Translations under genes and position numbers: made by a program | In this document: positions 13,398 to 41,169 of the stretch, one piece after another | Numbering within the stretch: the first letter of the stretch is position 1 | Layout of the letters: every line of letters begins with the position of its first letter | Virus record (IMG/VR): IMGVR_UViG_3300001041_000020 | Span: 7,709-71,708 of that record | Direction: 5' to 3' (one strand) | Length of the DNA: 64,000 bases | Source of the DNA: a virus | Notes under the pieces: generated by a model | Databases searched by the model: none | What the model saw: only the letters and a program-made list of their open reading frames with translations | What the model was told of the DNA's origin: nothing

Positions 13398-13430
13398 AGG
13401 CAAAAAAATAACGCCTTTCGAGGCGTTTTA
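13398..13430. terminator. Bidirectional hairpin terminator
   Basis: A-run, AACGCCT-TTCG-AGGCGTT, T-run. Confidence 0.7.
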
Positions 13431-17584: not shown

Positions 17585-18052
17585 TTATCTTAATAAATTA
17601 GCAAGAATGCGTATAACCCGATGTAGGGTAAGCATACTGTAAACCAGTAAAAATATAAAAATTAATGTCATTATTTGAAGATTAAGTGTCGTTGTACCTG
17701 TAAAGGCAATGGCTGAAATACAATAAAAGGTTAGGAGTAAGGAAACGGTTATAGAATCAACCATGTATCGAAGTATATGATCATAAACACTTCGCCCATC
17801 TGCCCTTGTAACTTGCTGTAGGCCTTGTACAATTTGTTTTTCGGCAAGAGCGTAGAAAATTGTTAAGGCTGTTGCAAGGAATCCCACCGAAATGGCGCTA
17901 AAGTTAATCGTCGCTGATAAAACGTCTTTTAGAATTACTAAAGAACATTTATCTAAATTACGTACAAAGAAGAATGAGAGAACAACAAATATAATGCTTA
18001 ATAAAAGAGGGTGAAATCGTTCCCATTTATAAGCCAATATTATCATCTCCAT
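17585..18052 (-). CDS. Multi-pass (about 4 TM) membrane protein
   Basis: Hydrophobic segments; FSAISVGFLATAL; coupled to upstream gene. Confidence 0.7.
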   Translation of the reverse strand: MEMIILAYKWERFHPLLLSIIFVVLSFFFVRNLDKCSLVILKDVLSATINFSAISVGFLATALTIFYALAEKQIVQGLQQVTRADGRSVYDHILRYMVDSITVSLLLTFYCISAIAFTGTTTLNLQIMTLIFIFLLVYSMLTLHRVIRILANLLR

Positions 18053-20634: not shown

Positions 20635-21135
20635 TTATTTGGATTCTCCCCAGCTAATCAATCTCCAGCCCTTCCACTGGTGACTAATATTTTTGCGTTT
20701 GCCTTGCATAGAGTATTTTATTTTACTTATTCCGTCCCACGCTTGCTGGACTGTACCGTCAAGCATATCAGCGTGATCGCGCAGCCAAAGCTTGAGATTA
20801 CGGCACTCATATATCCGTCCATCGGGAGCTTGGATAACCCAATCTTTTGCGTTGACATGCGTTTCAAATCTTCCGGTCAGAGGGCGAAGGGGTAACATTT
20901 CGTGTGCTTTTGCTAAGGCGACAGTATTTACTCCTGCCTCATATAGCTTTTGACGATGTATTTTAGAGCACTCCGCACTACAGGTTTTAGTTGGATTGCT
21001 TTGCGGATCAGCAAAGGTTGACCCGCAAACTATACATATTTTATGATTAGTTTTCCATTTTGCGTAGCAATCCATGGAGCAGGCGCTTTTATTGCGTCCT
21101 TTGGGTTTGCCACAGATGGGACATATTTTATTCAT
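20635..21135 (-). CDS. Zn-finger protein with NUMOD-like C-terminal domain
   Basis: CPICG/CSMDC, CIVCG/CSAEC; PDGRIYECRNL, WKGWRL. Confidence 0.6.
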   Translation of the reverse strand: MNKICPICGKPKGRNKSACSMDCYAKWKTNHKICIVCGSTFADPQSNPTKTCSAECSKIHRQKLYEAGVNTVALAKAHEMLPLRPLTGRFETHVNAKDWVIQAPDGRIYECRNLKLWLRDHADMLDGTVQQAWDGISKIKYSMQGKRKNISHQWKGWRLISWGESK

Positions 21136-21268
21136 CCTTTCTCATATCCTCTATTAACTTTTTAATCTTAGCATGCTCATCATCAGTAACATAGATTACC
21201 TGTTTTTTGCGTCCGGTCGGCTTACGTCCGGCTCCAGGGCGAAAACCACCATGTTCAGCTTTCTGCAT
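21128..21268 (-). CDS. 46-aa GGxRxGAGRK small DNA-binding protein (not in ORF track)
   Basis: MQKAEHGGFRPGAGRKPTGRKKQVIYVTDDE; RBS GGAG. Confidence 0.65.
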   Translation of the reverse strand: MQKAEHGGFRPGAGRKPTGRKKQVIYVTDDEHAKIKKLIEDMRKDE

Positions 21269-21280
21269 AATTTACATCTC

Positions 21281-21883
21281 CTATTCCCACGCTTCAGAAA
21301 ATTCACTATCCGCAAATAATTCAGCGAGCCCGCTAATCTGCTTTAACCTTAGTACCTCATCTGGTTCCATGCCTAATTCTTTTGCAATCTTATTGTCACT
21401 CCAATTACGACGTGATAACTCTAAAACAATATCGCTCATGGCAGTTACAGCATGCTTTCCTCTTGCCCGATTATGGCGAATAGTAGAAGCTATGCGGTCA
21501 CCTTTATCCAATCTGCTAGCGTTGATAATTGTGATAGGCAGATAACCATGCACGCGGATGCGGACATTTTCGCATTCTTTACCGACCCTGTTACGGTGGA
21601 ATCCATCGACAACCTCGTAGTGATCATCATCCCAGAAACTAACAATAGGCTGGGTATAACCATCTTCACTGATGCTATGTTGGAGTAATTTCATTTCTGG
21701 TGGGGCAACAGTGTTAGGGTTATAGTCATTGGCTTGGACTTGTTCTCCTGGGACCCATATAACACAGTCAACAGGATCATCCTTAAAAGGACTTATTTCA
21801 TGTAGTGCCAGTTTGATCTTATTGATTCTGGCGATGCGTTCATCAATCGGCAATGTGGCTATCTCTTTTAAAATATTTTCCAT
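21281..21883 (-). CDS. ibrB: IbrB/YbdM-like ParB-nuclease-domain protein
   Basis: ANDYNPNTVAPPEMKLL, VVDGFHR, STIRHNRARGKH. Confidence 0.88.
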   Translation of the reverse strand: MENILKEIATLPIDERIARINKIKLALHEISPFKDDPVDCVIWVPGEQVQANDYNPNTVAPPEMKLLQHSISEDGYTQPIVSFWDDDHYEVVDGFHRNRVGKECENVRIRVHGYLPITIINASRLDKGDRIASTIRHNRARGKHAVTAMSDIVLELSRRNWSDNKIAKELGMEPDEVLRLKQISGLAELFADSEFSEAWE

Positions 21884-23067
21884 TCACGCCGTCTCCGTTT
21901 CATCAACTTTTGATATTTCTCGTAAGCGTTAGACTTTGTTTGAGTAAATGACAGCCCTTTTCCCCAGTAATCATTGCGCAAAAGCATCTTACAAATACGT
22001 CTCCAACTAGGAACCTTTTTTGCCGCCTCGTCTTTCGGATCTGCAAAATCAGGTATTCCGCGAGAATATCCTCTATCCTCGTACCATTTTAAAAATACTG
22101 CAACCTTATTCTCGAAGTGTTCCTTGGTTCTGTCCGGCATGCTAGAAAGGAGCATCATTGCGAAGGATTCCCAAGTGTGCCCATCTGGCTTCGTGATTTT
22201 GATATTGCCCATAATATTTCCTGTTTCTTGAACGTAGAGAGCGCCATGATTCGCTCCGCTTACCCTGGCAACAATCTTGCCCCAAGTCTCTGGCTCAATG
22301 ATGTGAAACAGCCACAACCCGCGCCTCTGATCGTCTCCGTAAGGCTGACAGATCCGCATTTGATGGATGGTTAATCCGGCTTGGTGCATCAAGTCATAAA
22401 GTTTGTTATATGGCTTATCAAGCTTGGCATTATATGTCCAGATATCGGATGTTCTCCAGTCGTAAATAGGGTAGACGTTGTATAAACCTTGACCTAACCA
22501 TGTAGTATATCCCTTATCCTCAAACTTCGATTTTTTACCAACTATGGTGCGATATCGGTTCAATGACTCATCAGACCTAATGCCGACGAAACAGGCTGTA
22601 AGTTTTCCATCGCCAAACCATCGCCCAAACTCCGGGACAAATTCTTCAAACTCCATATCGTAATGGTAAAAAGGGAAATAGGTGCGATCCGTAATCGCTA
22701 TCTTGGGTGGTTGGCGCACCCATTCAACGTTATTTCCCCAGCAAGTCCATTTTGGTTGATATTGACTCACAGCATTTCGCAGGGCAATAGGGAGTGACAC
22801 CCAATAAGGCTCGATATGGTCTGCATAGTGAGCGTACATATGCTGGATGTGATCAATTGTAATTTTGTACTGGGCTTCTAAATCAACAAACAGTACACCT
22901 ACTTTACGATTGCGTTTAATGGCCTCACTCATGACCAAGTGGAGCATGACGCTACTATCTTTGCCTCCGCTAAAGCTTACGTAAATGCGGGGGAAGTTAT
23001 CAAAGATGTAGGTTATTCGTTCTCTAGCTGCTGTGAGGACGTCGATTCCGAGCGGTTTTTTAGCCAT
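21868..23067 (-). CDS. ibrA: IbrA/YbdN-like PAPS-reductase/DUF3440 protein
   Basis: SFSGGKDS, GIRSDESLNR, YPIYDW, MRICQPYGD, PSWRRICK..LRNDYW. Confidence 0.9.
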   Translation of the reverse strand: MAKKPLGIDVLTAARERITYIFDNFPRIYVSFSGGKDSSVMLHLVMSEAIKRNRKVGVLFVDLEAQYKITIDHIQHMYAHYADHIEPYWVSLPIALRNAVSQYQPKWTCWGNNVEWVRQPPKIAITDRTYFPFYHYDMEFEEFVPEFGRWFGDGKLTACFVGIRSDESLNRYRTIVGKKSKFEDKGYTTWLGQGLYNVYPIYDWRTSDIWTYNAKLDKPYNKLYDLMHQAGLTIHQMRICQPYGDDQRRGLWLFHIIEPETWGKIVARVSGANHGALYVQETGNIMGNIKITKPDGHTWESFAMMLLSSMPDRTKEHFENKVAVFLKWYEDRGYSRGIPDFADPKDEAAKKVPSWRRICKMLLRNDYWGKGLSFTQTKSNAYEKYQKLMKRRRREWKIF

Positions 23068-23822
23068 TTCTCAACCCCCTGGACAAAATATTTAGTCTTT
23101 ACTTTATCTGCTTTTACAATTTCAGCACAATAATTGTAATTATTTAATGCCTCCATAAGCGATTCCCACAAATTATGGTGGGTATTATTAACGGAAGAAT
23201 ATGCGAATTTACTATTTTGCAGTGATTTTACGAGTTCATTAATGTCCATTCGCTCACAAAGCATTCTTAAGTACTTATTAAGTTTCGAAACGTCAATCCG
23301 CATTGTTTCGGAAATGAATTTTCTTTGCTCATCGGTTAGATCCCCAATGACGGTCATATTTAAAGCCGCATAATGAGTTTGCTTTGAAGAAGTTATACTA
23401 TCTGGTTCTGGTTTACTGGGTTCATACCCCATGCTCCTAAGCTGATCTATAACATCCTCTTCGGTTATCTTGATAATGTCCCCATCATTACTTACAATAC
23501 AAAAATACTTATCTACATTTTTCCATGATGTCTGCGACTTAACTTGGTAGATGTGTCCGGACTCAAGAATGTATTCAGCCATAATTCCTCTTGATCCCTT
23601 GGAATTTGATCTCGAATATTCCTTTTTGTACTTCAAAAAGTTACGAAGGTATTTATATTTCGGATCGAATCCTGTTATTTCAGCAACCCATCCAGAGGAA
23701 GGCGTGTTGCCGAATGTAACATCGCCAATACCGGGTAGTAATTCATTAGATAAATTCCTGTAAAGCTTGTTTAATTGCCGAACATCATCGCCAAATAGCT
23801 CAATCTCAAGATAAGCTTTCAT
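23013..23822 (-). CDS. Hypothetical protein upstream of ibrA
   Basis: WVAEITGFDPKY, YSRSNSKGSRG; same operon. Confidence 0.7.
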   Translation of the reverse strand: MKAYLEIELFGDDVRQLNKLYRNLSNELLPGIGDVTFGNTPSSGWVAEITGFDPKYKYLRNFLKYKKEYSRSNSKGSRGIMAEYILESGHIYQVKSQTSWKNVDKYFCIVSNDGDIIKITEEDVIDQLRSMGYEPSKPEPDSITSSKQTHYAALNMTVIGDLTDEQRKFISETMRIDVSKLNKYLRMLCERMDINELVKSLQNSKFAYSSVNNTHHNLWESLMEALNNYNYCAEIVKADKVKTKYFVQGVEKWLKNRSESTSSQQLENE

Positions 23823-23842
23823 TCATGATTCTCCTTATCTTT

Positions 23843-23873
23843 TAAGGGGCTAACGGTTTAGTATTAGCCCCTT
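23843..23873. terminator. Hairpin terminator/attenuator
   Basis: AAGGGGCTAA...TTAGCCCCTT. Confidence 0.6.
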
Positions 23874-23896
23874 TGATTCTATTAGCTTTTATACTT

Positions 23897-24301
23897 CTAA
23901 CATAAGCAGTCGCACAATGCTACTTCATCATCACATATAACTCCATTATCATTTTCAAATACCGGAGAGCCATCCACATAAATCCTTAGTCGATTGCACT
24001 GAACAGAGTAACGAGCTTCTTTTTTTGATCCGTTTCTCGCAAAGGGGTTTTCCTCGCTCGAATACACTGGTGTTCCATTCTCGTTGTACTCGTTAAAATC
24101 CGATAGATCTATGTTGAACGATTTTAAGTACTCATCACCTTTTAGTAATTTTTCCTTAAGCCTACCATGGATGGACTGACATTCTTCTAATGTTATCTCT
24201 CCGAACACCTTTAATTCGGTGTATGCCCCGAATGAGTGGTTATGGTCGCTGCTTTGGCTGTAGACGAATCCTGACACATGAGAAAGTTTTTTCATTTTCA
24301 T
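23897..24301 (-). CDS. Hypothetical protein
   Basis: RBS GAGG; directly downstream of sigA promoter. Confidence 0.6.
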   Translation of the reverse strand: MKMKKLSHVSGFVYSQSSDHNHSFGAYTELKVFGEITLEECQSIHGRLKEKLLKGDEYLKSFNIDLSDFNEYNENGTPVYSSEENPFARNGSKKEARYSVQCNRLRIYVDGSPVFENDNGVICDDEVALCDCLC

Positions 24302-24332
24302 TTCCTCGCTCTCATTTCTTAATCTTGATATA

Positions 24333-24361
24333 AGTATACCAAAATCAAAAACATACGTCAA
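24333..24361 (-). promoter_or_regulatory. sigA promoter of the ibrAB-containing operon
   Basis: TTGACG-17-TATACT with extended TG. Confidence 0.7.
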
Positions 24362-24702
24362 CATGATTTTAGTGTATTTTAATCAAATTGCATAATTATT
24401 TACAAACAAAACAGCCCCCCAGCTTTCGCCAGGGGCCAATATTATTGTTTCGGCGGCTCCATCATTATAGTCAATAATTCCATTAACCCTTCCATTAATA
24501 GTTCCATTCGATCTTCGCGTTACTGGAATCGTTACTGGAATTGCAAGAAACCTTCAAACCCTTGCGCACCAAGGCTCAGAGGTATGTCAGTGGGCGAAAT
24601 AAAAACACACTTAAAATCTCGTAACATATACCCTTTTTTCTATAAAATAAATACCCCGATCGCTCGGCCCGCAGGGATCGATGCGAAGGGGGTAAGCTGT
24701 GT

Positions 24703-24900
24703 CTAATTAGTCGATTCCTTTGCCTTTTTTATCTCCTGTACCGTTTTCTCGATCTCCCTCACCGACTCAACCAGCCCCGCATTTGCTTGGCGTACTCCAT
24801 TCCTGACAGCTGCCCTGATGATGCCGTAGAAGAGGATGAGGGACAAGAACCACAGACAGAGGAAGAGGAGGAAATTAGGGAGGAGGAATGCGTCGCGCAT
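24703..24900 (-). CDS. Small membrane protein (DUF6019-like)
   Basis: TM followed by IIRAAVRNGV. Confidence 0.55.
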   Translation of the reverse strand: MRDAFLLPNFLLFLCLWFLSLILFYGIIRAAVRNGVRQANAGLVESVREIEKTVQEIKKAKESTN

Positions 24901-24923
24901 GGGATCATTCCTTTCAATGGTGG

Positions 24924-25898
24924 TTAATCATTCTGTGACGTTATGGTAATCGTATCAGTCTTATAATCAGATTTAGCCGTAACATTCTGAAGGATTAATG
25001 CTCCAAAGGCATTTTTAGCTCTGTATGTCATTTTAACGATTAAGTGGTCTCCTTTATCTGAGTATGTCGTTTTTTCGTGATCGAAGCTCTTTGGGTCGTT
25101 TAAGTTCTTTTTGAGTAAATCTACTAGATGGGTATGCGATCCGTCCCACGAACTAAACTGCCCCTTAATCCATGCTTGGTATTTCTTTTGAGCATATAGC
25201 CTTTCAAAATCTGCTTTCACCTCGGTCTTTTCGGCATCTGTTAGACGGTTGAAATATTTGTCTTCGATTTCTGCGAAATGCTTCAATTCATCTTCGGAAA
25301 ATAATTTATATTGAGCCATTATTAATAATGCCTTATCAGAGTCTGTAATCTTAGCTGCCTCGGCCTTTTCCTGAGCTATCTGTTCGGCGGTCTTCCCTGA
25401 TTGTGATGCTGTCGTTGGCGCCGTTGCGTCCTCGCCTCCAATAATACTACCAACCGTGCCAAATATGACTAGATAACCTACGATAGCGACAGCCATTTTC
25501 CACTTAGTCTTTGATCGAAAACCGAGAATCTTATTCCACCATTTTCGAGGAATTTCCTCTAAGCGTATATTAGTGTTTGCCTTAACTAAGGCGGCAACAT
25601 CTTTACCCTTTTGGTTTACCTTCAATTCATAGGTTCTTGTGTCGCTTTTTAAGATAAAGACTGACTGGGTAAACAAATGGTCAACGGTTGCGCTAGTCCA
25701 GTTCTCCCACTTCTCCTCGGATAACTTGCTGGCAGACCCATTCTTAAAATCGTACTGCTCAAATCCAGTGGTCGAAAAGACTAAAAATGAATTCAGTTTA
25801 CCCTGAACATCCGTGACAAGTGCCGGAAAAATTCCTAACTGATTTAAATAAATTTTAAATGCGTCTATCGGTTTTTGTTGTTTCTCTTTCTTTGCCAT
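24924..25898 (-). CDS. Bitopic membrane protein, possible superinfection exclusion
   Basis: ILGFRSKTKWKM plus TM; C-terminal FSSWDGSH...LNDPKSF...YRAKNAFG. Confidence 0.6.
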   Translation of the reverse strand: MAKKEKQQKPIDAFKIYLNQLGIFPALVTDVQGKLNSFLVFSTTGFEQYDFKNGSASKLSEEKWENWTSATVDHLFTQSVFILKSDTRTYELKVNQKGKDVAALVKANTNIRLEEIPRKWWNKILGFRSKTKWKMAVAIVGYLVIFGTVGSIIGGEDATAPTTASQSGKTAEQIAQEKAEAAKITDSDKALLIMAQYKLFSEDELKHFAEIEDKYFNRLTDAEKTEVKADFERLYAQKKYQAWIKGQFSSWDGSHTHLVDLLKKNLNDPKSFDHEKTTYSDKGDHLIVKMTYRAKNAFGALILQNVTAKSDYKTDTITITSQND

Positions 25899-25991
25899 TC
25901 AACACACACTCCTAATCCTTTACATACAATTGTCTTTCTTCCTTATAAATTAGAGGATTCCTGCAACTCGACAGGATTAATGGTTTTACGA

Positions 25992-28391
25992 CTATTTTGC
26001 AGCGTTCTTCTCATCACCTCCTTGGCGCGTAATAGGTGCAGGAAGGTGGGTGACAAACTTGGCATAATTCTCGTTGCACTTTATCAGATTCAAACTGTGA
26101 TAGCGTTTGAGGTTCAGTAAATCCTCTTCTGTGTATGGGTACAATTCGCTCTTAAGCTCATCAAAGTTCTTTTTATCCGACCCGCTTATTAGCATGTAGG
26201 AAGCATTGGCAGTGCGTAAGTCCTCCCTGATCTGCTTGATCTGGTTTAAGTAATGGCAACTGATGATAGGCTTCAGATTAAACTTAGGGAGTTGGCTTAA
26301 CTTCTTCGCCAGAAATTTCTCCGCATTCCTGACCTGGTAAAGCTCATCGATTTCTAGATTAACCTTAGTCATTTTGGATCTATCAATATTTTGGGCATCA
26401 AACTGGGCTTCCCGGATCTGCAACGCCAGCCATATTTTAGTTAGCCAGTATGTTACATATACGTCCCGTTCATTGTCAGTAAGGAACATTCTTTGTGGCA
26501 TCTTGATAACGATCAGTTGATTCTTTTGGATCTCCCTTACTAGGTCGATATTGTTCTCGCTGCCTTTTTTGAGCATTGTCTCGAGGTAAGCGTTGACCTT
26601 TAGTTTCTGCAGCCGGTCGACTGCACCGGTGATTAGGTGCATCCGGGTACCGACTACTTTACCTTTTTCGACGGTATCTAGCTCGAGCAGGTACCCAATA
26701 TATTCTTCCATGTTTTCCATCTGCTCCTCGGGTGTGTTTTCGATGAAAGACTTACGGATTTTATAATTCATCAGCACCGCAAATACGTCTTTAATATTCC
26801 CGTTAGTCAAGAATACGACCAAAGCAGCACTTTCGAAGTATCGGCCCATGCGAGCTGTGAAGTTAGCGTCATCCGCGTTTATGCTGTCTACGAGGGTCAT
26901 AAGGAGGGCTGTTTGCTCCTTGGCATTCTTATATTGGACAAAAGGATCTGTGCTCGGCGGAACTTCGTTATATCCCAGGCCTTGCAAGGTGTCCCAATTA
27001 TCACACCTTAGTTCTAATACCTTATCCGCAGGGAAGGAGCTAGCTATCTCAGTGCTAAGCTGGCAGCTCCCAATATAATCCGGGATAATAACGCACTCCC
27101 CAGCTTCGATAGCGTCTCTGGCGATGTTTGCCAAATACTTAGATTTACCCGCTCTATTTGGGCCGATCAATACGAGGCCCAGCATCCTGTATTCGGCATC
27201 AGTACTCATATAAACTTTTTGGCAGTTACCCTTAAATGTATTGGTGCCTAAACACATCACGCCCGTAAGGAGTTCTTCGGGTACTTCTGATTCTAGCGTT
27301 CCAATCCGTTCAATAAACTTGTGCTTCTCCAGTAACTCTCTGCCGGGCAGCGCAATAAAATTAGAGCATTCATTTTCACTGGCCTTAAAGGAAGCGGCTC
27401 CCTTAATCCTCGTGGCTAACGGGTTAAACTTGCCATACAAGCGCTTATGGGTTAAAGAGTTATCCTCCGAGATCGTATCAAAACTCTGGGCAAGACTCTT
27501 GGCATTGTTGTATTGCTGCATCTTATCCTTGCTTTCACTTAGCACTAAAATTTGAGTATCTAGAACCGTACTCTTACCCTTGGACAGGGTGTATTCTGAA
27601 ATAATCTTAGTATTTCTGAGGCTGGAGATAATCTGATCAAAAACCTCGCATTCCTTACTTCGCGTTGCTTTTTTGTTTTCCCCAGCAAGGAGTGCGCTTG
27701 CATTGTTCACGAGTCCATTTATTTGAGAGAATGCCCATTTAAGCAGGTATCCTACGTTCGCAACATTTTGGTCAACAGGGAGATCACTACGCATCTTCGC
27801 TATGGTTTTCTTATACTTAGTAGGCCACGAGAATTGGGACGTAGGAATGAAGTTGTAAAATATACCCACGCTGTCGCCATCCTCCATGATGTCTACGATG
27901 TTAAGGTTTGCCTCTAGCAGGTCATTGTTGCGTTTGTCTACGGCCAGACTTAAGCCGTCTTCCTTGCGGTAAAACAGGTGATACTTGGTTGCGGAATCCC
28001 CAAACGCAGGGATCGTAGTTATATCAGTAACAGGTTTCGCCGTGAGTCCTTTCCAAGTGCCGGATAGCTTCTCTTGGAGAATGTTGGCGTACTGCGTAGG
28101 GACAATAAAGTAGAACTCAATTCGCTTCTTTTCGATGTAAATGAAGTATGAAACCTTAAGTGCTAGGGCTACCGAATACTTAGTGCCGATCATGAATTCT
28201 CTACCCAGGATACTGACAAGTTTTCCTTGTTCAACCTTGATGCTTCGCTTAATGTCTCGGTAAAGAGATCCGATGGTCGTAGCGATATTGGAAGTGCCGT
28301 TGTTTAATATAGAGTTGTTAGGCGTTAATTTGATATAGGTGTACTCAGGCTTAACAAACGCTACGTAATCACTAAGCCTAATAGATTTCAT
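25992..28391 (-). CDS. VirB4/TraG/HerA-FtsK superfamily P-loop ATPase
   Basis: Walker A GPNRAGKS, Walker B LEIDE, SCHYLNQ. Confidence 0.75.
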   Translation of the reverse strand: MKSIRLSDYVAFVKPEYTYIKLTPNNSILNNGTSNIATTIGSLYRDIKRSIKVEQGKLVSILGREFMIGTKYSVALALKVSYFIYIEKKRIEFYFIVPTQYANILQEKLSGTWKGLTAKPVTDITTIPAFGDSATKYHLFYRKEDGLSLAVDKRNNDLLEANLNIVDIMEDGDSVGIFYNFIPTSQFSWPTKYKKTIAKMRSDLPVDQNVANVGYLLKWAFSQINGLVNNASALLAGENKKATRSKECEVFDQIISSLRNTKIISEYTLSKGKSTVLDTQILVLSESKDKMQQYNNAKSLAQSFDTISEDNSLTHKRLYGKFNPLATRIKGAASFKASENECSNFIALPGRELLEKHKFIERIGTLESEVPEELLTGVMCLGTNTFKGNCQKVYMSTDAEYRMLGLVLIGPNRAGKSKYLANIARDAIEAGECVIIPDYIGSCQLSTEIASSFPADKVLELRCDNWDTLQGLGYNEVPPSTDPFVQYKNAKEQTALLMTLVDSINADDANFTARMGRYFESAALVVFLTNGNIKDVFAVLMNYKIRKSFIENTPEEQMENMEEYIGYLLELDTVEKGKVVGTRMHLITGAVDRLQKLKVNAYLETMLKKGSENNIDLVREIQKNQLIVIKMPQRMFLTDNERDVYVTYWLTKIWLALQIREAQFDAQNIDRSKMTKVNLEIDELYQVRNAEKFLAKKLSQLPKFNLKPIISCHYLNQIKQIREDLRTANASYMLISGSDKKNFDELKSELYPYTEEDLLNLKRYHSLNLIKCNENYAKFVTHLPAPITRQGGDEKNAAK

Positions 28392-28407
28392 AATTTCAAA
28401 TCACCTC

Positions 28408-29028
28408 CTACTTTAGATTTAAGTACGGGGCTGGATCCACCGAGTGTTTACCTTTGTCTAAACGTATCTCGAAATGAACATGAGGGCCGGTGGACTTTCC
28501 AGTGTTTCCGGATAAAGCGATGACTTCTCCTTTGTTTACCGGTTGGCCAACTATAACTAATACCTGACTATTGTGGGCATACATTGTTTGAGTACCGTCT
28601 GGATGATCTACCTCTACTACATTACCGACTATGTTACCTTTGTACCCCGCAAAGCTTACAGTGCCCGACTTGCTGGAGCGGACTTTGGTGCCCTCGCTTA
28701 CAGCGAAATCAATGCCGTGATGAAATCCTCCGTCACGTGGGCCAAAAGGGGAGGACACAGGGCCGGATACCGGAGCAATATAATCTGATGCAGCAATAGG
28801 AGCTGCTTGGGCGGGCGGGCCAAGAACGGCCACAATCATAATGTAGGCGACTAACAAGATTCCTGCATAACGAATCCCTTGCTTCAGTCCTCCGGCGTAA
28901 AGTATTACAAGTATGGTACAGCCAAGCACTGTAACTGTGTGCATATAGCTCATGAATAGATCGGGTTTAGCGGTAATTAAGGTAACAAGGGCCATTAATA
29001 GCCCGCCTTTTAGTGCCAATGCCAGCAT
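28408..29028 (-). CDS. Membrane-anchored M23 peptidase
   Basis: HHGIDF, YAH, STGPHVHFE; N-terminal TMs. Confidence 0.88.
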   Translation of the reverse strand: MLALALKGGLLMALVTLITAKPDLFMSYMHTVTVLGCTILVILYAGGLKQGIRYAGILLVAYIMIVAVLGPPAQAAPIAASDYIAPVSGPVSSPFGPRDGGFHHGIDFAVSEGTKVRSSKSGTVSFAGYKGNIVGNVVEVDHPDGTQTMYAHNSQVLVIVGQPVNKGEVIALSGNTGKSTGPHVHFEIRLDKGKHSVDPAPYLNLK

Positions 29029-29041
29029 AAATTAACCCCTC

Positions 29042-29365
29042 CTAACTCAAGAACCCCTCTATCTGCAGCACAATATTAGGTATCAAGATGATTAAAGCAA
29101 CACAGGCAGCATAGGCGATAGACTTCTCCTTAATTCCATCGTAGTCTCCATTAAGGGCGCACTGAATTGCGTCTAACGCCCACTTACCGATAATAATCCA
29201 TTTGCCAACGGAGAATATTTTTTTGTAGGCGCGCATTCCCCCATCATCTACGCTGCCCGCAGCTAATGCCGTACTAGGGATAAGCAATAAGATAGCGGAC
29301 GTAAACGCAACCTGGATATAAAAGGATTTATGTCGCTGAAAATGGCTAACAACTTTTACCAACAT
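29042..29365 (-). CDS. VirB2/TrbC pilin-like membrane protein
   Basis: Signal peptide ending ALAA plus two hydrophobic helices. Confidence 0.55.
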   Translation of the reverse strand: MLVKVVSHFQRHKSFYIQVAFTSAILLLIPSTALAAGSVDDGGMRAYKKIFSVGKWIIIGKWALDAIQCALNGDYDGIKEKSIAYAACVALIILIPNIVLQIEGFLS

Positions 29366-29453
29366 GATATTTCACTCCTTTTCGGTATATTTCAGCTAGC
29401 TGTCGAATAGAGTTTAAAAACTTTAAACTCAATAGGCAGAGTCTAGCCCTCGA

Positions 29454-29744
29454 TCAAGAGCTTCGATATCCTCCGTGATGTTGGGGCTCTTTTTCGTTTT
29501 TAGGGCCTTTTTCCTTAAGTCTGATCGTTAGTTCGTGGGCTATTAGTTGTGCATCGGCTGGTGTGATGGAGGTTGGCGACCTATCCCTTGTTCCCATTAC
29601 ACCCATCTCAACCAACTTCAGTCGAACCCCATCCCTGACAATATCGGCCATTTCTCCCTCCTCCAGCTTTAAGTTACTGACGGCTTGTTGGATGTCTTTG
29701 TCTCGCTTGCGAAGTCTTGCCCGCAGAATTGTTATGTCGCTCAT
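29454..29744 (-). CDS. RHH-like regulator
   Basis: ILRARLRKRDKDI...ADIVRDGVR; RBS GGAGG. Confidence 0.55.
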   Translation of the reverse strand: MSDITILRARLRKRDKDIQQAVSNLKLEEGEMADIVRDGVRLKLVEMGVMGTRDRSPTSITPADAQLIAHELTIRLKEKGPKNEKEPQHHGGYRSS

Positions 29745-29888
29745 GTGTGTACCTCCTGTGTCTTGGTTGTGCTACCATCGTGATACATGTGTGTTTCGCT
29801 TGTGTCACAAATTACCTGTTAAAGATATATGCCTTGCAAGGTATAATATTACTCGCAAGGACTATTTTTGTATAAAAAAATTCCCTGA

Positions 29889-30080
29889 TTATTCAGGGAA
29901 GAGATATTCAATGGGTTTATTTAGGGCTTTCGAGAACTTCCTAGCTGTTTCAAGAGAGATACTTGTCTTCACTTTTTCATTTATGATTCGACTTATCACA
30001 TTTTGACGTATACCAGTTAGTTCTTGAAGTTCTTTTTGAGTTATTCTTCTTTCTTTCATTGCTTCGCGTAAACGATTCAT
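29889..30080 (-). CDS. XRE HTH regulator
   Basis: ITQKELQELTGIRQNVISRIIN. Confidence 0.85.
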   Translation of the reverse strand: MNRLREAMKERRITQKELQELTGIRQNVISRIINEKVKTSISLETARKFSKALNKPIEYLFPE

Positions 30081-30131
30081 ACTATCACCACAGGAAATAT
30101 ATTCCATATATCGTATCTAAAATCCTTCTTT

Positions 30132-30347
30132 TTAATGATAATAATCAGGCCAAAGGTAATCAACCTTCTCTCCAAGCGCAAGTGCAATATCTTGAGCAGT
30201 AGATAAATAACAATCTTTTCCATTCATGATTTGAGATAAATGAGACTTAGAGTAGCCAGTTATTTCCTCTAAGTCTTTTAGTCTTAAACCCTTTTTAATC
30301 ATAGCGTCATAAGCCCTGCAACGCTTGTGTTGTTTCAATATCATCAC
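30132..30347 (-). CDS. XRE HTH regulator
   Basis: LKDLEEITGYSKSHLSQIMNG. Confidence 0.8.
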   Translation of the reverse strand: MMILKQHKRCRAYDAMIKKGLRLKDLEEITGYSKSHLSQIMNGKDCYLSTAQDIALALGEKVDYLWPDYYH

Positions 30348-30551
30348 CGAGGCTTAAAGTTCAACAAGAATTGCTTGTTTCCTTCGCTAAAATGGGTATT
30401 ATGGGAAGTTTATACTTAAGTTAAAATATTGTGTCAAAAATATGCTATATTTAGCGTAAACTATGTAGTTTTCTCACAAGACATTATGACTCAATTCGAC
30501 ATGGTTCTAGGTTTAAACTTATAGGTAGCACCAAGGGAATGACATAAATGA

Positions 30552-30746
30552 ATGGTTGGTAATAGAATAGCTGAATTTAGAAAGGAGAAAGGTTGGACAC
30601 AAAAAGACCTGGCCGAAGCGGCTAGGTTAAGCAGGGGATACATTGCAGCTATTGAAGAGGGGAATCAGAAACCTAAAATCAAAACTGTAGTAATGATAGC
30701 GGGAGCATTAGGAGTTGAGGTAAAAGAGCTTTACGATGATAAATAA
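30552..30746 (+). CDS. XRE HTH regulator
   Basis: WTQKDLAEAARLSRGYIAAIEEG. Confidence 0.85.
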   Translation: MVGNRIAEFRKEKGWTQKDLAEAARLSRGYIAAIEEGNQKPKIKTVVMIAGALGVEVKELYDDK

Positions 30747-30780
30747 TGAAATAATTAATTAGCCTTCGACAAATTACCCC

Positions 30781-30810
30781 TTGATGAATATACGGAACAC
30801 GTGTTCTAAT
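30781..30810 (+). promoter_or_regulatory. Promoter overlapped by Firmicutes SOS (LexA/DinR) box
   Basis: GAAC-ACGT-GTTC at 30795-30806 downstream of TTGATG. Confidence 0.65.
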
Positions 30811-30846
30811 AAAAAGGCAATAAATGTTCTTGAGGGAGGTTGTATT

Positions 30847-31125
30847 TTGGGAACAAAAACGAAGGTAAATGAAGATCAATTCAAGAATGAATTTCTCGAT
30901 GAGGCCAATGTACTTGTGGAGGTCAAGGTCAGTGATGATGAAGGGGAAACATGGCATAGAAGGAAGATCAGCATGGTCGCCGGATTAGATGAATCTGGTC
31001 TTTTAGTCGGAGAATTATTTCAATTCAATGGCGAGAAGTATAAGGTCTCAGTGGGCGAAGATGGGCTGATAGCTGAGCCACTAAAAATACCGACTGAGAG
31101 GAAATCGAAACAAGGTAGGAAATAA
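30847..31125 (+). CDS. Small putatively SOS-regulated protein
   Basis: TTG start after GGGAGG. Confidence 0.6.
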   Translation: MGTKTKVNEDQFKNEFLDEANVLVEVKVSDDEGETWHRRKISMVAGLDESGLLVGELFQFNGEKYKVSVGEDGLIAEPLKIPTERKSKQGRK

Positions 31126-31290
31126 ACAAGGAAGCCCGTACACCCCGCAAGAGTTTCGGACTTCCCTAGCAAAATCCCCTCACGAAGGGAATATTTGTAA
31201 TGTAATTATATCCAGTAGCGCAACTGATGACAAGCTGTAAATATTGAGATGTTGCGTTTTATGCAACTAATTAAGAGAGGAATTGGTTTT

Positions 31291-31539
31291 ATGTTTCAAA
31301 TAACTTTAAAGACAGCAAGGGAATTAAATGGGCATACATTAGAGGAAGCGGCAAAATGCTTAGGTATGAATATGGATAATTATTGTAATGTAGAGAATGA
31401 TCCTAGTCAAATACCGCTGAGTTTAATTTGTGAAATAGTAGTCTTTTATGGTGTTGCGATGAGTATTATATATCCAGGAACAGAAGCCGAATGCATAAAG
31501 CACAATCAAAAGCTCGTTATTAATAGGGGTAACAATTAG
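31291..31539 (+). CDS. XRE HTH regulator
   Basis: ITLKTARELNGHTLEEAAKCLG. Confidence 0.8.
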   Translation: MFQITLKTARELNGHTLEEAAKCLGMNMDNYCNVENDPSQIPLSLICEIVVFYGVAMSIIYPGTEAECIKHNQKLVINRGNN

Positions 31540-31790
31540 GTAACGCAATCATACAAATGGCTATTATTTAGTATTAAAGATATTGCAGTAATAAATTGTA
31601 AATAAGGCGTAAAGCCTCGATTTTACGCACTCTTGTAGTATACCGTTAAAGATATTTCTTCCTATTTAAAGTACCTATTTTATGGGCGGCATGATGTAAG
31701 CGAAAGCTTACAATCCGCTCGTACCAATGGACTGAGCGTTTTAAAAACTCATAATTTCCTCCTGGGGTAACGAAAGGGTAACGCAATCAC
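31526..31790 (+). other. attP with arm sites and groEL-3'-like core
   Basis: Paired GGGGTAAC/GGTAACGCAATC repeats at 31526-31550 and 31764-31789 flank ATGGGCGGCATGATGTAA (31682-31699, MGGMM*). Confidence 0.78.
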
Positions 31791-31828
31791 ATAAAACATA
31801 TTCCATACCCATGGATGGTATGGAATAA

Positions 31829-33085
31829 TTAGAGGCTTTTCATGAGTTCGCTGAACTTTTGGGAGGCCTCTTTTTTCATTGCTTTTGTAGTGTGCATATA
31901 AACCAACCTTGTTGTTTTATCATCCTTGTGTCCTAGCCTCTCCATGATCTCGGGGAGACTTACTCCAGCTTCAGCCAAGAGAGAGGTGTGGGTATGCCGT
32001 AAAGAGTGTGGAGTTAGTGAAGTATTTAAACTAGCGATTTTTAAAAGGCGGCGCATTCTGTTTTCTATCGTTTTTATGATTTCCGGATAACCAAGGTACT
32101 TAACCTCTTTGGTGAATACAAAATCTTTATCATGCCATGTGCTACGGTTCTCCATCTTGACAATATTCTGTTCGGACTTGTGCTTCTTTAGCTCCTCTAA
32201 AACAACTCCATCCACTGTTATTTTGCGCTTTAGCCCGTTCTTTGGCAGTACGAGCTTGTATTTTTTAATATTGTTATTTGGGTTATATAACGTCTTTGTG
32301 ATATTGACTGCACATTCATCGAAGTCAATATCTTTCCATTTAAGGGCGCACAGTTCCCCGACTCTCATGCCGGTATAGGCCAACAACATGAACACCTGAT
32401 AATCTTTATCTAAGCCCTTATTTTTAGCTGTTTTCAAGAATAAGGACAGTTCATCTTTCTCCATGTATTTTATTTCCTCTTCTTCGTCCTCCAACTCATC
32501 AATAGATTTAGTCTCGTCCCTTGGCAAATAAGCGTATTGTGTAGGATCGATTTTTAATTCTCCTACTTCAAGTGCCCTTTTGAAAATCATCCTCGCGGTA
32601 ACGTGTATTCCTTCAAGGGTTTGTCGACTTAAACCGCCTTTGTCATTTCCTTTTTTATCTTTACCCTTACCGTGCTCCTTGAGGTCAATAAGGGCATTTT
32701 GATATTGCTTCAAAGTTATATTCTTAAGCTTTAGTTTCGCAAAGTATTTATTTAGATGCGCAAGCTCATGTATGCGAATCCTTATTGTTCCGTCTTTACG
32801 TTGTCTCTTTCCGGAGTTTTTATAATAGTCCATCCATTCCTTAGCAAATTCCTCAAAGGTTAGATTTGACTCTTTAATAAATGCCCCCTGTACTACCTCA
32901 TCTATAACCTTCGCAACTGCCAATTGGGCAGCTTTTTTTGTTTTAAAGCCTCCTTTCTTTGTCTGATCACGTCCGCCGGTCTTAGGGTCAACACCAACAT
33001 CAACAATGTAGTACCATGTTGCTCCACAATTGCATTTCTTTTTGTCAGCACATTTGCATTTCGGCTTATATACATGGCCTTGCAT
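31829..33085 (-). CDS. int: Phage tyrosine integrase with arm-binding domain
   Basis: TKKGGFKTKKAA, YTGMRVGEL, HSLRHTH, RLGH...VY. Confidence 0.95.
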   Translation of the reverse strand: MQGHVYKPKCKCADKKKCNCGATWYYIVDVGVDPKTGGRDQTKKGGFKTKKAAQLAVAKVIDEVVQGAFIKESNLTFEEFAKEWMDYYKNSGKRQRKDGTIRIRIHELAHLNKYFAKLKLKNITLKQYQNALIDLKEHGKGKDKKGNDKGGLSRQTLEGIHVTARMIFKRALEVGELKIDPTQYAYLPRDETKSIDELEDEEEEIKYMEKDELSLFLKTAKNKGLDKDYQVFMLLAYTGMRVGELCALKWKDIDFDECAVNITKTLYNPNNNIKKYKLVLPKNGLKRKITVDGVVLEELKKHKSEQNIVKMENRSTWHDKDFVFTKEVKYLGYPEIIKTIENRMRRLLKIASLNTSLTPHSLRHTHTSLLAEAGVSLPEIMERLGHKDDKTTRLVYMHTTKAMKKEASQKFSELMKSL

Positions 33086-33091
33086 CGGCCC

Positions 33092-33436
33092 CTACTCCCT
33101 TCTCTTGAGGCAGTCGTTGTCAACCAATAAAACTTCTTCTAGATATAGCTTTAGTCGCTTAATCCCGTACTCATTAAGGAGATTGATTCCTTTTAAATTG
33201 TCCTTAAAATTGAAATCCGGCTCATCGCTTTTAATAAATTTTCCTGTTGCTAAATAGTCAACAGTTACATCGAAGTATTCTGCAATCTTAACAGCATTGT
33301 CGAATTTAATATCCTTCAATTGCTTCTTAATTATGCTATCAAGCGTTGTGTACGGTATCCCTGTGTCTTTTGCAATATCAGATATCTTTACTCCTTCTTC
33401 TGCCATAAGCTCCCTAAACACTTCCCAAAGTTCCAA
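33092..33436 (-). CDS. CI/ImmR-like repressor (HTH only, no S24 peptidase)
   Basis: IAKDTGIPYTTLDSII...FDVTVDYL; divergent from cro. Confidence 0.85.
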   Translation of the reverse strand: MELWEVFRELMAEEGVKISDIAKDTGIPYTTLDSIIKKQLKDIKFDNAVKIAEYFDVTVDYLATGKFIKSDEPDFNFKDNLKGINLLNEYGIKRLKLYLEEVLLVDNDCLKRRE

Positions 33437-33475
33437 TTCTCCGCACCTCCGTTCACTGTATTGTACATAAAAATA

Positions 33476-33575
33476 TTACGAATATCAATGTATTATTTAC
33501 GAAAAGTAGTAATATTATTCTTGACTCATTACGAATATTCGTATAATATTAAAATAATATTACGAAGTATCGTAA
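33476..33575. promoter_or_regulatory. Lysis/lysogeny switch with four operators
   Basis: TTACGAA..TCGTAA-type palindromes at 33476, 33497, 33529, 33560; third lies between TTGACT 33521 and TATAAT 33542. Confidence 0.8.
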
Positions 33576-40248: not shown

Positions 40249-41169
40249 ATGTCAGTAAAAGAAACTAAGACCCAAGAACAGACTCAGGAAATTGCGGTAT
40301 TGGGTGATGGAGCCGTATTTGTTAAACGAACCGAGTCCGGACTGGTTAAAGCCGTCAAGGCACAGGTCAGACTTGATGAGAGAAAAGGCCATCTTGTCGA
40401 AATTCAGGGAAAAGTCATGATCACAGGAGCCGGTTACAACGAATTAAACAAAGTTGCCGGAGTGTCTGTTGTTACTCCTGAAAAAATAACTCTGCCAGAT
40501 GGATCAATGGTTGTTAATCCTTACCCGATTATTGACCTAATTTCAGGATCTATTTCAAAGGTCTGGGTTAAGAAGATGGCGATTGGATTGAGCCCCATTG
40601 GTAATTTGGTTATCACCACTTCCACGTTACTCTACGATATCCAAATGTATTTTATCCAGGATCTTGTGAAGAAGATCAAATTTAATGCTGCAGCCGGACG
40701 CTTATGCATGGAATCTATGTTAACAGATCAAGACAAGCAAAAGGGCATTTTTTACCGAATCGAAGGAGACCTGGGAGTTTGGGCAGATTTCAGTCATAAA
40801 GAGATTTTGACCTGTATTGAAACATTTGTTCAAAACAAACTCTTCGCAGAGCGAAAAGCCCAAACCATTGCCGAACGCAACGCGATGAAAAAGCATCCTG
40901 CTCTTGCAACGACCTTAGTTGTTCCGACCGGGCCAGAGAAGGCCCGCACTGCCGTTGTTAACGTGGTTGGATTCTCCCATGATTTCTCCCAACAGGAGCT
41001 ATTAGATATAGCACAAAAAGCATCAGACGGTGAACCGATCACCGTGAATAACAAAAAGGTTGAGGTTGTTGATATCTCATCCAGTGAACTTACTGAAGAA
41101 GATTTGGCAGCCAGTACTGACGAGGAAGAAAATCCGGAAGGCTCTTCCAACGGGGGTGACCTTCTTTGA
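40249..41169 (+). CDS. Putative single-strand annealing/recombination protein
   Basis: ITGAGYNELNKVAGV, AERKAQTIAERNA, acidic tail; precedes SMC-like ATPase. Confidence 0.45.
   Translation: MSVKETKTQEQTQEIAVLGDGAVFVKRTESGLVKAVKAQVRLDERKGHLVEIQGKVMITGAGYNELNKVAGVSVVTPEKITLPDGSMVVNPYPIIDLISGSISKVWVKKMAIGLSPIGNLVITTSTLLYDIQMYFIQDLVKKIKFNAAAGRLCMESMLTDQDKQKGIFYRIEGDLGVWADFSHKEILTCIETFVQNKLFAERKAQTIAERNAMKKHPALATTLVVPTGPEKARTAVVNVVGFSHDFSQQELLDIAQKASDGEPITVNNKKVEVVDISSSELTEEDLAASTDEEENPEGSSNGGDLL

Follow-up and report, generated by a model that had tools for sequence, protein, structure and literature searches.

A conserved module apparently derived from type IV secretion in a tailed phage and in mobile elements of endospore-forming Bacillota

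The locus analyzed here lies on the minus strand of a 64,000-nucleotide (nt) stretch of viral DNA, positions 7,709 to 71,708 of the IMG/VR virus record IMGVR_UViG_3300001041_000020. This stretch, to which the coordinates refer and which we call the window, belongs to a contractile-tailed temperate phage, as identified by genes for the tail sheath, tape measure, baseplate, endolysin and integrase; the source record is 71.7 kb long and is estimated to be 84% complete. It is well supported that the locus is a conserved module derived from a type IV secretion system (T4SS), with three components: a probable VirB2-like prepilin, a membrane hairpin protein that is fused here to an M23 peptidase, and a VirB4-type ATPase. 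An earlier reading made from the sequence alone, without database searches (the sequence-only reading), had described the locus as a stripped-down, T4SS-like translocation machine, and the VirB4 fold of the ATPase, the pilin-like neighbor and the joint conservation of the genes all bear this out. A homologous "DNA translocation operon" and the idea of virion-free transfer were already published in 2012; as compared with the available text of that work, the new elements are the definition of the core, the relaxase-less state, the peptidase fusions and a conserved cis element.

The ATPase, the pilin-like protein and the membrane hairpin

The ATPase (799 amino acids (aa); 28391-25992, minus strand) carries a Walker A motif, GPNRAGKS, at residues 410-417 and, for Walker B, the acidic pair DE at 682-683, and has no transmembrane (TM) segments. 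It belongs to phrog_5156, a family annotated as "unknown function" (2.3e-83), yields no match in NCBIfam and, when a profile of 52 homologs is compared with PDB sequences, gives weak matches to TrwB (0.0034), HerA (0.011) and VirB4 (0.3); some of the homologs carry a weak precomputed PF10412 match. The assignment comes from the fold. With the full AlphaFold model (predicted local distance difference test score, pLDDT, 87.8), Foldseek ranks full-length chains of R388 TrwK/VirB4 highest (best E 5e-14). The C-terminal domain (residues 368-790, nt 27290-26022), a P-loop domain of the FtsK/HerA superfamily, is matched best in VIA-align by Thermoanaerobacter VirB4 4ag5 (Z 27.9, root-mean-square deviation (rmsd) 3.3, 339 of 374 residues aligned), with lower scores for DndH-C (26.0), TrwB (25.2), HerA (24.5), FtsK (17.5) and TcpA (17.4). 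The N-terminal domain (residues 1-340, nt 28391-27372), folded alone (pLDDT 78.3) and compared with 48,161 representative chains, places residues 34-389 of TrwK first (Z 14.2, rmsd 3.4, 223 aligned), the runners-up scoring 9.5 and 7.9, and the top 10 Foldseek matches of this domain are all TrwK chains.

By these models, the protein is predicted to have the full two-domain VirB4 architecture. The sequence-only reading had left it between VirB4 and FtsK and had proposed a comparison with VirB4, VirD4 and TcpA; both domains match VirB4 best by fold, and the protein groups with VirB4, VirD4 and HerA (27.9, 25.2 and 24.5), not with FtsK or TcpA, which fall far below VirB4. A pump of the FtsK/SpoIIIE or TcpA type is rejected on these scores, and there is no PF01580 match in the record. 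A coupling protein of the VirD4/TraG type is ruled out as well, because the ATPase has no membrane anchor; in addition, its N-terminal 340 residues fold like VirB4. A predicted complex of the N-terminal domain with the membrane hairpin, run without controls, scored 0.00. On this assignment, PHROG family 5156 can be re-annotated, and genes of this kind, commonly labelled "MsbA", "TraD" or "VirD4", can be given a corrected name.

Related loci were collected from reference genomes (37) and from IMG/VR (80), with ATPases at least ~40% identical to that of the window (the narrower alignment A2); 93 loci remain after dropping identical ATPases and loci short of upstream DNA. Exactly one pilin-like gene is detected in each of the 93 by a hidden Markov model (HMM) built from alignment A4, on the ATPase strand and ending 80-1518 nt upstream of the ATPase start. 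The same HMM detects a pilin-like gene in Clostridium phage phiCp-D (5.5e-24) and Terrisporobacter phage TPDSL_ph2 (1.9e-22).

The representative of this family in the window is a 107-aa protein (29365-29042, minus strand) whose gene stands directly before those of the small TM protein and the VirB4-type ATPase; the conjugative order is virB2-virB3-virB4. The protein has an N-terminal hydrophobic, signal-like segment that ends in ALA, followed by AGS, and a C-terminal hydrophobic helix. The leader would be cleaved after ALA at residue 35, leaving ~72 aa of mature protein, in which a charged loop separates two hydrophobic helices. Across an alignment of 36 family members, the A-x-A end of the leader and the pattern GKW..I.KG..D.I....GD...AK are conserved. 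In a comparison of ESM Atlas features, the TrbC family set is common to 21 of the 30 nearest clusters (best score 0.91, with 187 features in common), and TrbC is annotated on 16-17% of the members in the two top clusters shown; we treat this neighborhood as a lead, not proof. Positional equivalents in distant relatives match pilin models directly: the one in a C. sporogenes plasmid reaches Pfam TrbC (28.5 bits, cut-off 27.9), the one in phage D6E matches T4SS_pilin at 2.2e-5 (24.9 bits, cut-off 26.6), SPO1 gp29.1 matches T4SS_pilin weakly (0.022), and PGAP labels the plasmid equivalents "TrbC/VirB2 family protein". The description of the 107-aa protein as a VirB2-like protein with a signal peptide and two helices is thus probable on architecture, position, language-model neighbors and the Pfam matches of distant relatives, with none of the 36 members of the window's own family matching Pfam TrbC (PF04956) or T4SS_pilin (PF18895).

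The third component is a 206-aa protein (29028-28408, minus strand) in which about three N-terminal TM segments are joined to a Peptidase_M23 domain (PF01551; 1.7e-32, 111.9 bits, cut-off 28.7) with intact zinc ligands (HHGID at 103, HVH at 183), in full agreement with the TM-anchored M23 peptidase of the sequence-only reading. The membrane part, with a conserved two-helix hairpin, covers residues 1-78 (nt 29028-28795), and the putatively extracytoplasmic metallopeptidase covers residues 102-199 (nt 28725-28432). Judging by its ligands, the M23 domain appears to be an active peptidoglycan endopeptidase; SpoIIQ is among its weaker NCBIfam matches (2.3e-17). An Atlas search with the membrane part gave no usable match.

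An HMM iterated from alignment A6 finds the hairpin domain in 89 of the 93 loci, invariably on the ATPase strand, and also in phiCp-D and TPDSL_ph2. The hairpin stands alone in 50 loci (80-110 aa; 48 upstream of the ATPase start) and is otherwise part of a long protein, at its C-terminus (34 loci) or, as in the window, at its N-terminus (5 loci). By tblastn, the M23 domain is found in 46 of the 93 loci. The long hairpin proteins that were inspected are M23 fusions, those of the Bacillaceae type with M23 first and the hairpin last, and in L060, L062, L066, L068, L071, L077 and L098, M23 is encoded directly downstream of the ATPase as a separate protein with a single TM segment. Because the two occur fused in both orders or split, the hairpin protein and the peptidase appear to be functionally linked, and the gene arrangements provide good evidence that they work together. 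The short basic loop of the hairpin would lie inside the cell, which would place the M23 domain outside in both fusion orders. The designation "VirB3-like" could be applied to the hairpin protein by position and topology only. Conservation of the three genes together, put forward earlier as a check on the trio, thus holds strictly for the pilin (93/93), nearly so for the hairpin (89/93) and in about half of the loci for M23 (46/93).

Relatives, hosts and the conserved element upstream of the pilin gene

Against 50,697 phage records, tblastn finds the ATPase family in 71, among them those of SPO1 (gp27.4), CP-51, CampHawk, D6E, phiCp-D (35% identity) and TPDSL_ph2 (32%). The window ATPase matches SPO1 gp27.4 at 8e-12 with 98% coverage, and with gp27.4 as the query, 146 phage records are retrieved, including 0305phi8-36 ORF201 (2e-20). 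The carriers span lytic phages (SPO1, CP-51, 0305phi8-36), temperate phages and plasmids.

The hosts of all 71 phages belong to Bacillus, Geobacillus, Lysinibacillus, Brevibacillus, Alicyclobacillus, Clostridium or Terrisporobacter, genera that we take to form endospores, and 145 of the 146 records retrieved with gp27.4 likewise come from endospore-former genera, the exception being a Microcystis phage. The phage collection is also rich in phages of Staphylococcus, Streptococcus, Lactococcus and Listeria. Plasmid records with the window ATPase family are in endospore-former hosts in 36 of 36 cases; over the plasmid searches with the window ATPase and with gp27.4, the hosts are Clostridium, Bacillus, Priestia, Alicyclobacillus, Thermoactinomyces and Laceyella, plus Embleya (two plasmids) and Sulfitobacter (one plasmid). 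The 37 genome loci come from endospore-forming Bacillota, except for one metagenome-assembled genome (MAG) labelled Bacteroidota (L031, 44% identity, full length). The outliers (L031 and the Microcystis, Embleya and Sulfitobacter elements) may reflect binning errors, matches to the P-loop only or true transfers. In a phylum-wide sample of genomes, the ATPase family is present at E<=1e-10 in 6 of 401, and SpoIVA in 323 of 401, including all 6 ATPase-positive genomes. The sequence-only reading had suggested looking for the genes in phages of spore formers; the restriction to endospore hosts agrees with a function connected with sporulation but is confounded by phylogeny, and shared ancestry or gene exchange could also yield the pattern.

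By MOB-suite typing as given in PLSDB, 35 of the 36 family plasmids are non-mobilizable, as are 50 of 59 found with the gp27.4 query; many of the plasmid matches are 50-72-kb replicons of this type. Large Clostridium plasmids (150-275 kb), also mostly typed non-mobilizable, carry a TrbC/VirB2-family gene paired with the family ATPase, and in the C. sporogenes plasmid NZ_CP022406.1 (L123, 8633-11433), the pair has no further gene annotated as T4SS within 9 kb.

ParM-like genes are located upstream in at least 24 of 121 loci, and in many loci, as well as in D6E, SPO1 and phiCp-D, a ParM-like gene and a small protein gene directly precede the module. The gene order in SPO1 (L004, 3436-9493) is gp29.1 (a membrane protein, the weak T4SS_pilin match mentioned above), gp27.9 (ParM-like), gp27.8, gp27.7/27.6/27.5 (tiny TM proteins), gp27.4 (ATPase) and gp27.3, which matches Pfam Replic_Relax (2.9e-12); with this cluster, a strictly lytic phage carries the module in a more complete form. 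Homologs of gp27.3 are detected by tblastn in 0 of 120 other loci.

A conserved cis element occupies the gap between the gene of a 96-aa protein and the pilin gene (29380-29457, minus strand). In the window, it opens with the sigma-A-like boxes TTGATC-17-TATTGA (29457-29429), which are followed by the motif AGAnTnnGCCTAnT, a hairpin with 9-bp arms (GAGTTTAAA/gtt/TTTAAACTC; 29430-29410), TATTCGACA directly after the hairpin (29409-29401) and, ~20 nt beyond, AAATATAC. The general order in the family is the motif AGAnTnnGGCTAnGT, the hairpin (arms of 7-10 bp, loop of 2-11 nt), TAT(G/T)C(G), ~20 nt and AAATATGC, and the block is conserved at the DNA level even where the pilins are only ~45% identical. 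Of 56 sequences, 24 carry a hairpin followed by TAT[GT] in the 200 nt that precede the pilin gene (shuffles: mean 1.3, maximum 4); under the stricter pattern, a hairpin followed by TAT[GT]C is present in the 2 kb upstream in 29 of 96 cases on the coding strand versus 4 of 96 on the opposite strand, and downstream in 11 of 87. The stems vary yet stay paired: 85.9% of the cells are paired versus 62% in shuffles, and double-sided stem changes number 31 versus 8.8 (reached in 0 of 500 shuffles), a count that is biased given that the rows were picked for pairing. Pairs were counted on a supplied structure; RNAalifold on the MAFFT alignment A5, in which the arms are misaligned, gave no pairs. The DNA fold of the element is better than that of all 200 shuffles (z -3.4), and Rfam finds in 29300-29900 only a chance-level match to NsiR1 (E 1.5). 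Besides its match at 29409, the pattern occurs in the window only at 31898, inside the integrase open reading frame (ORF), and this second match is taken as chance. Upstream of the ATPase in SPO1, D6E, phiCp-D, TPDSL_ph2 and the C. sporogenes plasmid, the hairpin with TAT[GT]C was not found.

The oriT (origin of transfer) nick regions of R388 and RSF1010 consist of an inverted repeat followed by ~8 conserved bases, and the cis element can be read by analogy as an oriT-like hairpin with a nick-site-like flank. The sigma-A-like boxes overlap the left arm of the hairpin in the window and, as TTGACA-17-TATTAA, in the closest relative, L043; equally, then, the element can be an operator or promoter with a leader. 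The heptamer TGTCGAA, to which the sequence-only reading had drawn attention, is indeed present at 29401-29407 on the plus strand, where it is the reverse complement of part of TATTCGACA, but it is not enriched in the window (11 occurrences versus 7.9 expected; 13 of 100 shuffles reach 11). Because only the window and L043 carry it, 2 of 23 aligned copies, a Spo0A box is rejected as a conserved feature of the element.

The transcription unit and its surroundings in the phage

The module is part of a minus-strand unit, from about 29850 to 24416, in which six co-oriented genes are bracketed by two terminator-like hairpins, one upstream (29900-29881, minus) and one resembling an intrinsic terminator that closes the unit (24435-24416, minus; 8 pairs, 6 of them G-C, followed by T-rich sequence). 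The first gene encodes a 96-aa soluble protein (29744-29454, minus) and is followed by those of the pilin-like protein, the M23 fusion and the ATPase, with intergenic gaps of 88, 13 and 16 nt; all four are preceded by Shine-Dalgarno-like sequences and lie exactly where the sequence-only reading had placed four tightly spaced, co-oriented ORFs. The extent given there for the operon, 25992-29850, covers these genes correctly, but the unit runs two genes further, with a 324-aa bitopic membrane protein (25898-24924, minus; TM segment at residues 134-156) and, as the last gene, a 65-aa protein with a single TM segment (24900-24703, minus).

For the 96-aa protein, no match was found in Pfam, PHROG, NCBIfam or PDB, and ribbon-helix-helix (RHH) families match 0 of its 10 positional equivalents; the earlier label "RHH" is not confirmed, a strand-helix-helix pattern being visible by eye only. 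Similar small proteins, of the type ITFRLRK...RDGLRLMLGI, can be recognized by eye at the same position in L058, L063, L065, L084 and L097, and in related loci the place of this gene is usually taken by a small soluble protein, often preceded by a ParM-like gene. The 96-aa protein is probably a DNA-binding regulator or adaptor. The 324-aa protein matches PHROG families of unknown function, gives only chance-level matches among PDB sequences and is specific to this lineage. At E<=1e-3, tblastn detects the 96-aa, 324-aa and 65-aa proteins and the genes downstream of the unit (PAPS reductase, ParB-like) in 0 of 121 loci, which places them outside the conserved core.

Upstream of the 96-aa gene is the promoter-like sequence AATA-15 nt-CATATAT (29850-29825, minus), with a perfect 10-bp palindrome, CCTTGCAAGG, in its spacer (29841-29832, minus). 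At the equivalent site, L043 keeps ATA-15 nt-CATATATC, and the ATA-15-CATATATC site is probably a real promoter with an operator in the spacer. The palindrome has a near-repeat, CCTTGCGA, 21 nt upstream; in L043, the palindrome between the same ATA and CATATATC boxes is a different one, AGACTTTAGTCT (about 6575-6590). The spacer palindrome looks like an operator that was swapped together with its regulator. Of the sigE/sigK-like promoter proposed earlier, the sequence itself stands, but AATA-N15-CATA is common in the window (8 occurrences versus 3.35 expected; 3 of 100 shuffles reach 8) and the sigma class cannot be read from it; a consensus scan found no sigma-70-type site at 29825-29850. Past the 96-aa gene, a GC-rich hairpin (29456-29491; 15 pairs with G-T allowed) has no U-tract on the minus strand and is terminator-like on the plus strand; related hairpins can be seen by eye in L043 and L048.

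In the phage as a whole, the contractile-tail module and the endolysin gene occupy positions 1-17 kb, the accessory and lysogeny region that includes the module extends over 20-33 kb on the minus strand and ends with a tyrosine integrase gene (31829-33085), and early and replication genes lie beyond the integrase. Megablast of positions 21000-33500 against the phage collection returned zero matches. Among sequencing runs, a search listed 4 of DNA, all belonging to one groundwater study, and none of RNA. The closest named proteins are from Desulfitobacteriaceae and Desulfosporosinus youngiae, and the host is probably a member of Desulfitobacteriaceae.

Between the operon and the integrase, small genes of the Cro/CI helix-turn-helix (HTH) type face each other (29889-30347, minus; 30552-30746, plus; 31249-31539, plus), and this cluster (29889-31539) is probably the lysogeny switch. 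The 72-aa HTH protein matches HTH_3 (5.1e-14), and the operon begins directly past the terminator of its gene. Downstream of the operon on the same strand is an overlapping pair (21281-23067, minus) that encodes a ParB-like protein (phrog_2159, 3.7e-72) and a PAPS-reductase/DUF3440 protein (Pfam 1.5e-32 and 1.6e-19), the latter with weak PADLOC matches to BrxP and DndC; the pair adjoins the ATPase in 0 of 121 related loci. A second tyrosine-integrase-like gene (13428-14435, minus; phrog_1, 2.6e-57) lies between the tail and lysis genes, distant from the integrase at 31829-33085. A well-conserved phage protein of 735 aa (41166-43373, plus) matches phrog_32642, a family of unknown function, over its full length (E = 0) and an SbcC-like family weakly.

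Possible functions and comparison with known systems

The reading that we consider best is that the module forms an envelope-spanning conduit or pilus that moves DNA, with passage into the forespore included as a variant; we give this reading an about even chance of being correct. A ring of the ATPase would sit on the cytoplasmic side of the membrane, docked on the small membrane proteins; the M23 domain, held outside the membrane by the hairpin, would cut a local hole in the thick cell wall; and, driven by ATP hydrolysis, the processed pilin would leave the membrane and assemble into a short pilus or conduit. The DNA of the element might then cross by way of this conduit, with no relaxase or coupling protein of its own, as in the relaxase-less archaeal Ced and Ted systems, into a neighboring cell or into another compartment of the same cell, that is, the forespore. 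The links to DNA handling come from the relatives, namely, the Replic_Relax gene beside gp27.4 in SPO1 and the ParM-like genes upstream in part of the loci.

Several observations weigh against this reading. Pfam gives nothing above the cut-off for the ATPase (the best match is AAA_29 at 0.0047), so that no Pfam VirB4 model is reached; Pfam VirB3/PrgI matches 0 of 14 members of the hairpin family; and, beyond the null result of the Pfam pilin models, hhalign of the pilin family against three single TrbC-like neighbors was not significant. The C-terminal domain of the ATPase is nearly as similar to the defense-linked DndH-C and HerA as it is to VirB4. As in the sequence-only reading, no relaxase or further T4SS gene was seen: neither a Replic_Relax relaxase (PF13814) nor FtsK_SpoIIIE (PF01580) has a match in the 84% complete record, and no VirB6-like polytopic ORF (at least 4 hydrophobic segments) lies near the operon, the sole 4-TM ORF in the window being a 155-aa one beside the lysis region (17585-18052); these general scans of the record and window covered relaxases, the FtsK family and polytopic ORFs, and no dedicated search was made for VirD4/type IV coupling proteins (T4CP) or VirB8. 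The module resides between the lysis genes and the integrase, in prophages a frequent place of exclusion and defense genes, and its cis element can equally be regulatory. DNA translocation by the module is inferred. Deletion of the island in 0305phi8-36 caused no laboratory growth defect, according to the available text of PMC3357382. A pilus would also be unusual here because, in the available text of PMC12102498, Gram-positive T4SS classes are reported to lack VirB2 homologs; for the same reason, a pilin-bearing module in Bacillota is noteworthy.

A variant raised by the sequence-only reading, delivery of phage DNA into the forespore, seems unlikely. Near confinement of the matches to endospore formers (71/71 phages, 145/146 records with gp27.4, 36/36 plasmids, 37 loci less one MAG) argues for it, given that life in spore formers is what the lytic phages, temperate phages and plasmids share, and so does the frequent linkage with ParM-type partition genes; this distribution is, however, confounded by phylogeny and gene exchange. 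The channel from the mother cell to the forespore uses SpoIIQ, a protein of the M23 fold whose M23 domain is degenerate. The weaker match to SpoIIQ is in line with such a function, whereas the M23 domain in the window has its catalytic residues intact. Virospore formation is known for SPO1, and its ParM gene is discussed in that context (available text of PMC12991052); the dispensability of the homologous island for laboratory lytic growth (available text of PMC3357382) is compatible with delivery into spores as well. Against it, integrated prophages, such as this phage with its integrase would form, enter the spore with the chromosome anyway, and the promoter and 0A-box matches are at chance level, TGTCGAA being confined to 2 of 23 element copies. 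No result obtained here bears on the job that the sequence-only reading assigned to the module, movement of DNA into the forespore or between cells.

Likewise unlikely is a surface structure that moves no DNA, that is, a pilus or adhesin, built by the pilin, the peptidase and the ATPase, through which infected or lysogenic cells would make contact, aggregate or form biofilms. The strictly conserved core of pilin, membrane adaptor and assembly ATPase speaks for it, and in most loci no DNA-handling gene was found, with no relaxase in the record and no gp27.3 homologs in 120 loci. However, a putative DNA-binding small protein and the conserved hairpin element are linked to the operon, some relatives have ParM/ParR-like genes and a Replic_Relax gene adjoining, and in known systems, pili that depend on VirB4 are parts of machines for DNA or protein translocation.

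Superinfection exclusion or anti-phage defense, in which a membrane-anchored complex of an ATPase of the HerA/VirB4 superfamily would block or expel foreign DNA, is quite improbable. It would account for the accessory position between lysis genes and integrase in temperate relatives, for the similarity of the C-terminal domain to DndH-C (Z 26.0) and to HerA of Sir2-HerA and DUF4297-HerA (Z about 20-24.5), for the weak PADLOC match of the P-loop part of the ATPase to mad8 (4.9e-7) and for the ParB-like and PAPS-reductase (DndC/BrxP-like) genes downstream. It does not account for the VirB4-specific N-terminal domain, which scores well above other folds, for the obligatory secreted pilin-like partner or for the wall hydrolase in half of the loci; to our knowledge, secreted pilins and wall hydrolases are not features of HerA-type defense systems. 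Moreover, no effector (nuclease, Sir2 or similar) is conserved beside the ATPase in related loci, and the other operon proteins have no PADLOC match.

A partition accessory, with the ATPase and membrane proteins tethering or resolving extrachromosomal copies together with ParM/ParR without crossing the envelope, is very unlikely: ParM-like and small protein genes do precede the module in many loci and in D6E, SPO1 and phiCp-D, and many plasmid matches are 50-72-kb, non-mobilizable replicons, but ParM was found neither in most loci nor in this phage (a weak test, in which the StbA control was detected in no control genome), and a signal-peptide pilin and an extracytoplasmic peptidase have no role in partition.

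To return to the DNA-moving conduit or pilus, its boldest form, a hitherto unclassified class of relaxase-less pilin machines in phages and plasmids of endospore-forming Bacillota that recognize the hairpin-plus-TATGCG on their own DNA and provide for its virion-free passage through the thick wall to the forespore or to neighbors, is doubtful. Provided that the components are correctly assigned, a VirB4 machine with a VirB2-like pilin is present in tailed phages whose hosts form spores. The questions of how lytic phage genomes enter spores and whether phage DNA can spread by contact narrow to three genes and one cis site, in a module that is present in SPO1 and other manipulable phages of B. 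subtilis.

Among Gram-positive conjugation systems, those of ICEBs1 (ConE and CwlT), Tn916 (Orf16 and Orf14) and pCW3 (Tcp) combine a ~800-aa VirB4-like ATPase without TM segments, a wall hydrolase and small membrane proteins; they also have a coupling protein, a relaxase and VirB6/VirB8-like proteins. Their hydrolases are muramidases or NlpC/P60/CHAP enzymes, not M23 peptidases. TcpA matches the C-terminal domain of the ATPase less well (Z 17.4) than VirB4 does (27.9). With the VirB2-VirB3-VirB4 core of conjugative T4SS (R388 TrwL/TrwM/TrwK, PDB 7o42 and 8rtd; Thermoanaerobacter VirB4, 4ag5), the module has in common the order of a small signal-peptide two-helix gene, a small TM gene and a ~800-aa ATPase, as well as the two-domain fold of the ATPase; VirB1-type enzymes are the wall hydrolases of T4SS, a likeness to the associated hydrolase here. 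Unlike this core, the module shows no sequence match to Pfam VirB4, VirB3 or TrbC, has an M23 hydrolase fused to the small TM protein and is carried by a tailed phage in which VirB6, a relaxase and an FtsK-family ATPase were not found.

The closest described homologs are orf200-207 of 0305phi8-36 and gp27.3-27.9 of SPO1, which, in the available text of Pathria et al. (2012, PMC3357382), constitute a "DNA translocation operon" defined by informatics. ORF201/gp27.4 is described there as a "coupling ATPase" of the VirD4/TraG type (HHpred of ORF201 versus gp27.4, 4e-22), alongside a relaxase of the CloDF13 MobC type (orf200/gp27.3), a VirB6-like protein and an MreB/ParM-like protein (orf207/gp27.9), and virion-free spread of phage DNA from cell to cell is already the subject of speculation for the homologs in these two phages. 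The two modules share the ATPase family, soluble and without TM segments, and the small membrane proteins that adjoin the ATPase. They differ in the relaxase, VirB6-like and MreB/ParM-like genes, none of which was found in this phage, and in the ATPase itself, taken there for a VirD4-type coupling protein whereas both domains are VirB4-like here. Absent from the available text of that paper are the pilin-like gene, the TM hairpin protein and its fusion to M23, and the cis element with its hairpin. Later literature on the module, supplements aside, yielded only citations of that paper and no test of cell-contact transfer.

Relaxase-less systems that are otherwise reminiscent of the module are found in Patescibacteria and in archaea. 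According to the available text of Quinonero-Coronel et al. (2025, PMC12102498), the T4SS of Patescibacteria are mostly relaxase-less, and their function is thought to be co-opted but is unknown. As here, VirB4 is encoded with VirB3-like and VirB2-like genes nearby, in monoderm bacteria; unlike here, VirB6 and TrsD are present and the components are detected by CONJscan and Pfam, whereas the present module escapes Pfam and belongs to phages and plasmids of endospore-forming Bacillota. The archaeal DNA importers Ced and Ted, which are relaxase-less and consist of VirB2, VirB4 and VirB6 homologs (Beltran et al. 2023, available text of PMC9905601), differ from the module in that they always include the VirB6-like channel CedA/TedA, are chromosomal, import DNA and have no peptidase. 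The likeness is one of gene content: both are minimal, relaxase-less T4SS derivatives with a VirB2-like pilin and a VirB4-like ATPase, and Ced and Ted indicate that such a reduced set can move DNA.

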